The notes under the pieces: generated by a model
Database searches by the model: none
Told to the model about the DNA's origin: nothing
Seen by the model: only the letters and a program-made list of their open reading frames with translations
Translations under genes and position numbers: made by a program
Part shown: piece after piece, positions 12,158 through 13,466 of the stretch
How the letters are laid out: each line of letters begins with the position of its first letter
Position numbering within the stretch: position 1 is the stretch's first letter
Source: Escherichia coli
GTDB taxonomy: Bacteria > Pseudomonadota > Gammaproteobacteria > Enterobacterales > Enterobacteriaceae
NCBI RefSeq assembly: GCF_003790525.1
Contig: NZ_CP033635.1
DNA: 64,000 nucleotides
Strand: one strand, 5' to 3'

Positions 12158-12322
12158 ATGGCAAAGCCGATCATCACGCTCAATGGCCTAAAAATCGTCA
12201 TTATGTTGGGAATGCTGGTCATTATTCTCTGCGGTATCCGTTTTGCCGCCGAGATCATCGTGCCGTTTATTCTCGCATTATTTATTGCTGTTATATATAA
12301 CTTATTTCGCTTAACTAATTGA
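12158..12322 (+). pseudogene. tqsA: 5' stub of AI-2 exporter gene tqsA. The first ~46 codons are intact, then the frame runs into inserted DNA and stops (…[13 protein letters not shown]).
   Basis: [45 protein letters not shown] matches the TqsA N-terminus. The sequence diverges after GCTGTTAT at 12294. Confidence 0.85.
12286..12294. repeat. attL core: TGCTGTTAT shared with attR
   Basis: The same 9-mer is the last tqsA-matching sequence at both junctions (12286-12294 and 23720-23728). Confidence 0.55.
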
Positions 12323-12365
12323 TTTAATTAAATAATTTGCACTACAAAAAGTGCCAAAAATCGCA

Positions 12366-12390
12366 AATTAACTACACCATTAACTACACC
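12366..12390 (+). repeat. Tandem TTAACTACACC x2 (AATTAACTACACCATTAACTACACC), putative integrase arm-type sites, left arm
   Basis: The identical 25-mer recurs in the same orientation at 23567-23591, next to the int start codon. Confidence 0.55.
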
Positions 12391-13466
12391 GTTCGGCGCA
12401 CTGTATGAAACAACGTGGAACAAATAGACACAAGCGGCAGGCTATACCGTTATCATTTTTCAGCTATCCGTCATGAAGCTGGTGGATGATCACGGATAAC
12501 CAGGCATCTACAGCGCCTTAAAAAGCTGAACCCGACAAACATTTCTGCTTATCGGGTCCGATCGCTCTTTCTACTCGTGGCAGATGAGTTTACTAGGAAG
12601 GGGGGAACATTGTATCAGGCTATCCCCTTTCTGTGCTGATTCGGCTGGTGAATGATCTACTTGGGGCACTACACTTTTCGGATAGTGCGGGTATCCGGTT
12701 TTCTGCCTCATCGAATTTTAAGCCTTCTGACGGCCTGTATATCATTTCCTGTGGAGTTGCCGCCCTGATAGCGAATACTGCGGCAGCATGTGATTTACCC
12801 CCCGTTCTGTTGATGTTTGATGTGGCTGGTTGATGTGCTGCCATGTTTTCCGCCAATGGTGGAAAAGCCCACCAGCGCAACGCAGGACGCATAAAACCAT
12901 TGCGATGACTCTGGACGCAAAACCACGTTTAACGATGTTTTGCACTGAACCAGAATACTGTTCGTTTTTGTCTCGATGTCCGTACGTATTACGTCCGCAC
13001 CTAATCCGGCATCATGCCCACCAGCGTAACGCATTTTTTTAATTTCGTGGCTGTGCGTCCACCAGCTACGCCGGAATGGGGTATTCCGTTTCAACGGAAC
13101 AGGTATGACGAACATAATCGCACCTTCTCCCGAAAACGGTGCGACCTGCATCATCGAAATGGTGATTCAGCTACTCGGCGATTTTCACCATTCAGAATCT
13201 GGCGGGTGAGTTATCCAGCTTCCACCAATGGGGGATTCTGGAACAATCAACGGGTTACGCCTTATCAGCAAAAAAGCACATCAACTGTAAAGGAAATCGT
13301 TATGGTTGCTGGTGGGCTGCGTCACCATCATGGTGATGATGCTGTCCAGTCAGCCGGAACGGTTGAACAGGGTGGCTATGGGTCACTCTGTTGTGCGTTA
13401 TTTGCGTGATCCTGGTACGGGGTGACTATCTTTCAGATAGTCGGTTGCCTGGTTACACGAAAAAAT

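Follow-up and report, generated by a model that had tools for sequence, protein, structure and literature searches.

The locus examined here raises the question of what occupies a stretch of about 1.1 kb, at the edge of a mobile element in the Escherichia coli chromosome, in which no convincing gene can be recognized. The stretch (12295-13466) belongs to a 64-kb sequence of E. coli chromosome, referred to below as the window, with the gene order ynfF ... mdtJI / island / tqsA 3' part, pntBA. The island is a satellite of ~11.4 kb (12297-23730) that resembles the phage-inducible chromosomal islands (PICIs) and lies inside tqsA, and the region studied runs from attL up to the stop codon of a perC-family gene (13467). 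An earlier description made without any comparison (the sequence-only reading) had called the region poor in open reading frames (ORFs), and only short, overlapping ORFs are indeed found between attL and the perC stop codon. It had also noted two hairpins, taken to be related, and had suggested that the stretch was not junk but encoded a small RNA or held protein-binding sites. We propose that 12295-13466 is probably the non-coding att-proximal arm of the tqsA-integrated satellite, rearranged and partly vestigial in this island. The earlier observation was partly confirmed, and its interpretation was partly supported, with the exception of the RNA at its core, for which we found no support.

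Both junctions of the split tqsA carry the attachment core, since GCTGTTAT recurs at ~23722-23733, and a 26-nt integrase arm-type repeat, AATTAACTACACCATTAACTACACCG, is present at 12366-12391 and again at 23567-23592, beside int. Arm-type repeats at both ends of the island, together with a duplicated core, are the features by which we recognized the att sites of a tyrosine integrase. The first 140 bp of the arm (the att arm, 12295-12440) are common to more than 1000 E. coli genomes; this and the other counts of E. coli genomes given below are among 5,426 genomes.

Mosaic composition and packaging sites

The evidence for our proposal comes from a comparison that covered 20 annotated E. coli loci and some 45 loci from IMG/VR and metagenomes; most of the IMG/VR contigs anchored on PerC extend no further than the stop codon of perC, without the arm. 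In most relatives, 80-370 bp separate the modules corresponding to 13007-13047 and 13048-13345, and this DNA is missing in the window island. When a relative's arm was compared with phages by BLAST, it matched several Burkholderia phages at their physical termini and phiP27 at its annotated cos-site, the identity with the phiP27 cos extending over about 45 nt, TTTTTAATTTCGCGGGTGTAAAAATTTGACGGGGCGGGCGGTCCC. The core used to define a phiP27/HK97-type cos, AAAAATTTGACGrGGCGGGCGGTCCC, is present in relatives L012-L018, L026-L029 and others, and it has no match anywhere in the 64-kb window when up to 3 mismatches are allowed. At the window junction 13047/13048 the sequence reads ...AATTTCG and continues as TGGCTGTG..., and in alignment A3 the homology breaks off at this point. 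Judging from these alignments, the cos core and an adjoining AT-rich repeat element have been cleanly deleted from the window island.

The AT-rich element, an optional unit of ~300 bp, separates the arm cos from the conserved block in relatives and contains three direct GCGGGTTA and three inverted TAACCCGC repeats (L013 ~3280-3560; L030 2690-2900). It is present or absent as a whole, being missing in L017, L029 and L052, and it looks like a candidate replication origin or a set of terminase-binding repeats. We rejected it as the origin of the window island, where it is absent. That island has iterons of its own, an AT-rich cluster of direct and inverted TACTCACTTT repeats at 18648-18863, just 3' of the RepA-family helicase gene, which is the likely replication origin on the basis of its sequence and location.

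A few bases upstream of the deletion, 505 bp occupy a position where relatives have ~20 bp. This patchwork is found at full length in only 3 of the E. coli genomes, and it consists of four pieces: a piece of rlfB, the flank of hairpin 1, a piece found upstream of a 93-aa gene in relatives, and a scrap of an ORF6N gene. Within the rlfB piece, a hairpin on the − strand (12559-12528) is followed by AGCTTTTTAA; it resembles an intrinsic terminator in sequence and would halt read-through into host genes. The possibility that the stretch was a decayed known gene, which the sequence-only reading had raised against itself, was borne out to the extent that scraps of foreign genes are present, but the region is not one decayed gene. 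A single pseudogene was rejected because no frameshift-tolerant similarity to one protein covers most of the region. A decayed KilA-N or ORF6N gene was rejected as well, given that the similarity is limited to 13 codons (the tail of a truncated KilA-N ORF) and 18 codons (ORF6N).

In most relatives the order of the arm is a phiP27-type cos core, the optional AT-rich element, the conserved block and a palindromic stem-loop that closes the late operon. The window island, in which attL with the integrase sites makes up the first ~150 bp, has lost the cos core and the repeat element and received the foreign patchwork. In its arm, a dedicated function would remain only to attL and possibly to Chi and hairpin 2.

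Where, then, is the packaging site of the window island? A cos within the arm was rejected: the 12-mer of lambda cosN, GGGCGGCGACCT, has no match in 12295-13466, the 19-mer of the P2/P4 cos has none either, and sites of the lambda type are located 1.2-1.9 kb rightward. These are two lambda-type cos regions that form a 78-nt inverted repeat (14592-14669 on the + strand and 15327-15404 on the − strand; 91% complementary), match about 100 lambdoid phages at their cos and contain a cosN, GGGCGTCGACCT, with one mismatch to lambda, at 14623 and 15362. The pair brackets a gene on the − strand (14838-15272) for a Nu1-like helix-turn-helix protein. Three CCGGACAT repeats at 14670-14775 resemble the R sites of cosB, and the same inverted cos pair is seen in the IMG/VR relatives L009 and L011. 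The simplest reading of these sequences is that the packaging system was exchanged and that the old cos arm was left eroding.

The genes next to the arm were identified with the help of strain PKF11, which has a copy of the island 99.9% identical to that of the window and annotated by the Prokaryotic Genome Annotation Pipeline (PGAP). From the arm, the order is PerC, two hypothetical genes, an unnamed 144-aa gene, a head decoration protein and the major capsid protein, followed by a second PerC, SSB, a RepA-family helicase, DUF4222, an Icd-like protein, AlpA and the integrase. Profile matches place a Nu1/small-terminase-like helix-turn-helix domain in the product of the 144-aa gene.

In its ~45-nt identical core and its location between att and the packaging/late operon, with a consensus site for integration host factor (IHF) nearby, the arm of the relatives is similar to the cos regions of PICI- and P4-type elements and of phiP27 (HK97-like, HNH-dependent packaging). 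The window island differs from phiP27 in that the cos core is absent and lambda-type cos sites and a Nu1-like gene are present instead, and the conserved block that adjoins the cos in relatives has no counterpart in any phage record.

Relatives of the capsid-forming PICI (cf-PICI) type present a further arrangement. L027 (~2934 and ~5986), L033, L034, L035, L046 and L060 each have two P27-type cos-like motifs; in L050 only the internal motif lies within the stretch retrieved. The cos variant that is their own, AAAAATTTGAGGAGGCGGTCGGTGTC, is found upstream of TerS, as is canonical; in L027 it falls between TerS and the HNH-proximal hypothetical gene. In the two-motif loci, the arm copy agrees with phiP27 at 20-23 of 26 nt, and the commoner arm variant of other relatives at 25 of 26. 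The arrangement suggests that the att-proximal copy could be a helper-type cos.

Table 1. Positions of features in and next to the att-proximal arm (window coordinates)
Feature	Position	Strand	Remarks
attL and integrase arm	12289-12440		core GCTGTTAT at ~12289-12296, at break of tqsA frame
Shared 37-bp module	12465-12501	+	present in all related islands; top-strand Chi 12478-12485
Island-specific patchwork, 505 bp	12502-13006		scraps of other elements; ~20 bp here in relatives
rlfB scrap, 70 bp	12519-12589	−	86% identical to stretch within P1/P7 rlfB
Hairpin 1	12663-12700	+	weak; decayed copy of the 3' stem-loop of a 124-aa gene
Segment found upstream of 93-aa gene in relatives	12825-12911		palindrome TCCGCCAATGGTGGA 12849-12863; bottom-strand Chi 12869-12876
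ORF6N scrap, 48 bp	12975-13022	−	90% identical to part of ORF6N-domain gene (18 codons)
Left flank of phiP27-type cos region	13007-13047		bottom-strand Chi 13018-13025; deletion junction 13047/13048
Conserved non-coding block	13048-13345		~300 bp; alignments of relatives
Chi in block	13059-13066	bottom	exact octamer
Hairpin TCCGTTTCAACGGA	13085-13098		invariant small hairpin
Variable cassette	13140-13180		three alleles; alignments A1, A2
Stem TTCACC...GGGTGA	13184-13209		interrupted 10-bp stem; T-run in relatives, degraded here
Palindrome TCCACCAATGGGGGA	13221-13235		dyad kept in relatives
IHF-consensus AATCAACGGGTTA	13245-13257		invariant in 13/13 sequences of alignment A1
Chi in block	13308-13315	top	exact octamer
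perC 3' flank	13346-13466		conserved; comparison with relatives
Hairpin 2	13424-13442		perfect palindrome GACTATCT-TTC-AGATAGTC, 24 nt 3' of perC stop codon
perC-family gene	13467-13838	−	first confident gene right of arm; PGAP version shorter, 13467-13769

The two hairpins

Hairpin 1, as originally drawn, is a 6-bp stem with additional mismatches (z = −0.3 on the + strand). Other E. coli islands have a 124-aa hypothetical gene whose 3' flank is 72-76% identical to the surroundings of hairpin 1 (12666-12820), and there the homologous segment starts 10-15 nt after the stop codon; the gene itself is absent from the window island. In L023, the stop codon of the 124-aa gene is followed by a perfect 10-bp stem, AGCACTACAC-TTTTT-GTGTAGTGCT, and L024 and L058 have a differently spelled 12-bp stem, GGAGGCCTGCAC-TTTTT-GTCCAGGTCTCC, so that the differences are truly compensatory. 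In the window copy, the 3' arm reads GGATAGTGC as compared with GTGTAGTGC, which breaks two base pairs, and where hairpin 1 has GATAGT the intact homologue has GTGTAGT. Because the stem carries these substitutions, the GATAGT that it shares with hairpin 2 is a product of decay. Hairpin 1 is, as the comparison indicates, an eroded stem-loop that once lay 3' of a cargo gene, now lost.

Hairpin 2 is real. The perfect 8-bp stem occurs once in 64 kb with 0 copies expected by chance, and the motif had been correctly recognized, although the position first assigned to it (~13411-13448) was about 8 nt off. In IMG/VR, the sequence TGACTATCT-NNN-AGATAGTCGGTT is confined to 12 small satellite contigs. 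Across the family it is always located just 3' of the last gene of the late operon, which is either perC, as in the window, or the 93-aa gene, and the flanks of the two contexts are unrelated. In the 93-aa-gene context, a further hairpin, AAACTACGAAA/TTTCGTAGTTT, and a U-rich tail follow. Homology between islands begins or ends exactly at the motif, which places mosaic breakpoints there. The loops TTC/GAA and TTG/CAA are reverse-complement pairs, while the stem and the outer flanks keep their orientation (window, L010, L027, L028, L033, L065, L067); this looks like the outcome of repeated flipping of the hairpin centre at the DNA level. In L012 (4480-4545, − strand), a (CCAGCCAG)n microsatellite of about 11 units lies between the conserved block and hairpin 2.

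The two hairpins had been described as related, and this did not hold. Their best local alignment score is 18, which is reached by 1.6% of the other 51-nt windows of the island and in 43 of 2000 shuffles, and about one such match is expected per 1.1 kb. The similarity is at chance level, and a relationship between the hairpins is not demonstrable. The statement that neither hairpin is followed by a T-run is correct for hairpin 2, on either strand, and incorrect for hairpin 1, in which an alternative stem (12678-12698) is followed by TTTTCT.

One interpretation is that hairpin 2 would mark or stabilize the 3' end of the − strand transcripts of the late operon, or else would be a palindromic protein site at a module boundary; termination at hairpin 2 can be put forward only as a suggestion, because the U-tract is lacking. 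We favour a stem-loop at the 3' end of the late operon, which may serve as a protein site as well. Hairpin 2, like hairpin 1 in its ancestral form, is found where a transcription unit ends, within 10-50 nt of the stop codon, and in this it is similar to operon-end terminators and 3' stabilizing stem-loops; a further similarity is that the L024 version of hairpin 1 keeps the stem by means of a different sequence. Hairpin 2 differs from these elements in having no U-tract, an invariant stem and a 3-nt loop that occurs in reverse-complement pairs.

Chi sites around the ancestral cos

Chi was scored as the exact octamer 5'-GCTGGTGG-3', the activity of which depends on RecBCD arriving from the 3' side. 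It occurs five times in 840 bp of the arm, on the + strand at 12478 and 13308 and on the − strand at 12869, 13018 and 13059. The 11.4-kb island as a whole has 16 copies as compared with 6 in the 52.6 kb of chromosomal flank (0.11/kb), and, under a Poisson model with an assumed E. coli average of 0.22/kb, the enrichment has a probability of ~8e-6 (arm) and ~1e-8 (island). No other 8-mer is as frequent as Chi, either in the island or in 171 kb of related satellites, loci L031-L038 and L060-L067 included (183 copies, 1.07/kb). This family density is about five times the assumed average, and that of the window island is higher still; the non-coding arms of related satellites contain 3.7 Chi/kb. 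The Chi sites have no extended consensus in common.

In the arms of about 20 relatives, Chi is located around the cos core at −108 (top strand), −53 (bottom), +362 or +78 (bottom) and +611 (top). The sites at −108 and at +78 or +362 are in the orientation that would be recognized by RecBCD entering at a cos end. Of the 16 copies in the window island, 12 share the − strand with the coding sequence of most island genes, and by their sequence they are in the predicted active orientation for entry at the capsid-side end of the cos at 15362.

Chi-rich lambdoid phages without recombination genes have been described, namely phage LLS and its relatives (PMC12315714; Bobay et al. 2013, PMC3784561). As in LLS and its relatives, Chi is the commonest octamer of the satellites and is denser than in the host, and, as in Chi-rich lambdoid phages, most Chi sites of the window island (the 12 just mentioned) are in the RecBCD-active orientation for one cos end. 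The window element is unlike LLS in being a satellite, in having one Chi per 0.7 kb as compared with one per 1.86 kb, and in that the Chi sites of the arm are in both orientations and tightly grouped around the ancestral cos. The literature that we searched contains no report of Chi enrichment in satellites and no description of this arm in PICIs or cf-PICIs. The Chi-dense satellites, the helper-type cos bracketed by Chi, the inverted double lambda cos and the cf-PICI-type relatives with two P27-type cos motifs all go beyond it.

One could envision that Chi sites flanking the ancestral cos were oriented so as to attenuate RecBCD coming in from the DNA ends and to favour RecA-dependent recombination. 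It is possible, although we put it forward only tentatively, that the arm of the family is an adapted "DNA-end module", composed of a phiP27-like helper-type cos, correctly oriented Chi sites within ~100 bp on each side and further Chi throughout. If this is true, then RecBCD acting at either end of injected or cleaved satellite DNA would switch from degradation to the loading of RecA, and Chi would protect satellites that have neither Gam nor a recombinase of their own. The arm would also be the recombination hotspot behind the observed shuffling of modules. The window island would be a derivative that has switched to a lambda-type cos and retained its Chi sites.

The conserved block and alternative explanations

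The block 13048-13345 is present in 187 of the E. coli genomes, always in an att-proximal position. As to homologues in other species, the conserved 27-mer has no match in a collection of species-representative genomes. Both the integration site and the packaging module vary among the satellites that carry the block (the modules are P27-type TerS/TerL/HNH, DUF1441 with a ClpP-capsid fusion, or lambda-like capsid genes), and the block's only constant companion is the 93-aa phrog_1561 gene. In about 40 loci, the ~40-nt cassette within the block takes one of three discrete forms (alleles A, B and C), which differ in length by 1-2 nt and are not linked by intermediates. As read from the alignments, the only conserved − strand frame of the block ends after 9 codons in the L027/L028 type; because of this stop and the length differences of the cassette alleles, we regard the block as non-coding. 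The allele is independent of integration site, terminase type and presence of perC. The cassette was rejected as a terminase-specificity site because there is no correlation between allele and small-terminase type, and as a conserved RNA hairpin because the folds of the alleles differ and are no better than those of shuffled sequences.

Several observations weigh against the view that the arm is largely a relic. The DNA of the block is 84-96% identical among relatives, while the product of the adjacent 93-aa gene is only 71-80% identical, and the block came through the deletion intact; each of these suggests a retained role. A palindrome that is doubled and keeps its dyad, TCCNCCAATGGNGGA, looks like a working protein site or RNA stem, and a transcript may originate from the block. 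Hairpin 2 has no U-tract on either strand and so is not a canonical intrinsic terminator; its stem is invariant and does not covary, which would fit a sequence-specific site better than a generic RNA hairpin. Finally, for RecBCD entering at the ancestral cos, 2 of the 4 Chi sites around it are predicted to be in the inactive orientation.

One alternative hypothesis is that the arm is still working cis-acting DNA, in which the palindromes, the IHF-consensus site and hairpin 2 bind a protein of the satellite or the helper. The roles of such sites may include the termination of packaging, DNA bending near the genome end or the regulation of int after circularization. Palindrome TCCNCCAATGGNGGA occurs exactly twice in 64 kb, with both copies in the arm (8 matches as compared with 1.6 expected at up to 2 mismatches), and many relatives have the two copies 40 bp apart, with symmetric changes that preserve the dyad. 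The invariance of the IHF-consensus site and of the sequence of hairpin 2 across its contexts, and the ATCAACGGGTTA-like repeats that flank hairpin 2 in relatives, are also in keeping with this hypothesis. However, no protein that binds the putative sites was found, the cassette allele shows no relation to the small terminase, and the deletion of the adjoining cos core leaves a packaging role orphaned in the window island, where, moreover, the palindromes are 372 bp apart and not 40 bp. We consider it rather unlikely that the arm still works in this way. For the conserved block by itself, a cis-acting DNA role near the genome end is the guess that we prefer, and the suggestion of protein-binding sites rather than junk was well taken to the extent that the integrase arm-type repeats, the doubled TCCNCCAATGGNGGA and the IHF-consensus are probable sites, judged by their sequences. 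The stretch is not random.

A second hypothesis is that the block encodes a small regulatory RNA on the + strand that ends at the stem TTCACC...GGGTGA, which in relatives is accompanied by a U-run. The cassette would then be the specificity region, for example that of an antisense or immunity RNA directed against read-through from the late operon towards att and int. This hypothesis would account for a block that is better conserved than the adjacent genes, for the interrupted 10-bp stem followed by GTTTTTC in many relatives, for three discrete cassette alleles between invariant flanks and for the fold of the window copy (z = −2.9 over 141 nt). Nevertheless, the U-run is degraded in the window island (GTTATCC), no promoter-like site was found in 12200-14000 as compared with 2.8 in shuffles, and the left edge of conservation varies with the type of island, so that there is no conserved promoter position. 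The three cassette alleles have no significant fold in common (z from −0.06 to −1.4, with weak scores for the alleles other than that of the window), and the predicted stems are invariant and thus without support from covariation. Rfam gave no match at gathering thresholds anywhere in the window, and a permissive search of 12200-13950 (E<=10) gave six matches at chance level to unrelated eukaryotic and other families. Resemblance to the P4 CI RNA, the P1/P7 c4 antisense RNA, the msr/msd of retrons and ToxI is confined to the setting, a non-coding stretch in a satellite with an Icd-like gene; unlike these systems, the arm has no match to a covariance model, no annotated partner gene and no repeated RNA units, and neither a reverse transcriptase nor a ToxN-like or other partner gene is annotated in the near-identical PKF11 island. 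The immunity, toxin-antitoxin or retron-like RNA that the sequence-only reading had envisioned also loses its starting point, the hairpins being unrelated and hairpin 1 a relic. We regard a small RNA as quite improbable.

The att-proximal end is a usual site of cargo in E. coli PICIs. Six ORFs of 66-131 aa were compared with Pfam, PHROGs, PADLOC and NCBIfam, and a seventh with PADLOC and NCBIfam only. None of them matched a family or defence model in these libraries, which do recognize the adjacent perC, the Nu1-like gene and the 93-aa gene, and the two longest had no tblastn match among 50,697 phage records. Small proteins serving as accessory or anti-phage cargo, such as a small toxin or the hypothetical proteins of 106 aa (− strand) and 67 aa (+ strand) that PGAP annotates in the PKF11 island, are highly improbable products of the arm. 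From one relative to another, the strand on which these ORFs are annotated changes, and their frames are shifted with respect to the window; the 67-aa ORF and its closest homologue are separated by 5 nonsynonymous codon changes and 1 synonymous one; the variable alignment columns show no bias for the third codon position; and the cassette alleles differ by indels of 1-2 nt. Neither a conserved frame with synonymous bias nor a family match was found, and the description of the stretch as one without protein-coding cargo proved to be correct.

A rearranged and partly vestigial att-proximal arm remains the reading that we favour. The region is mostly ordinary and vestigial, and the Chi-dense arm is a modestly novel side result. 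For annotation, the ORF-poor arms of satellites should not be called cryptic cargo or RNA genes before they are compared with those of relatives; here the comparison exposed relic terminators and the deletion of a packaging site. Satellites that differ considerably in their packaging modules retain a helper-like cos in the att-proximal arm. Should the Chi sites prove functional, satellites would handle RecBCD by mimicking the "self" signals of the host, as has been proposed for lambdoid phages without recombination genes, and conserved arms flanked by Chi could account for the free exchange of integrase and packaging modules.

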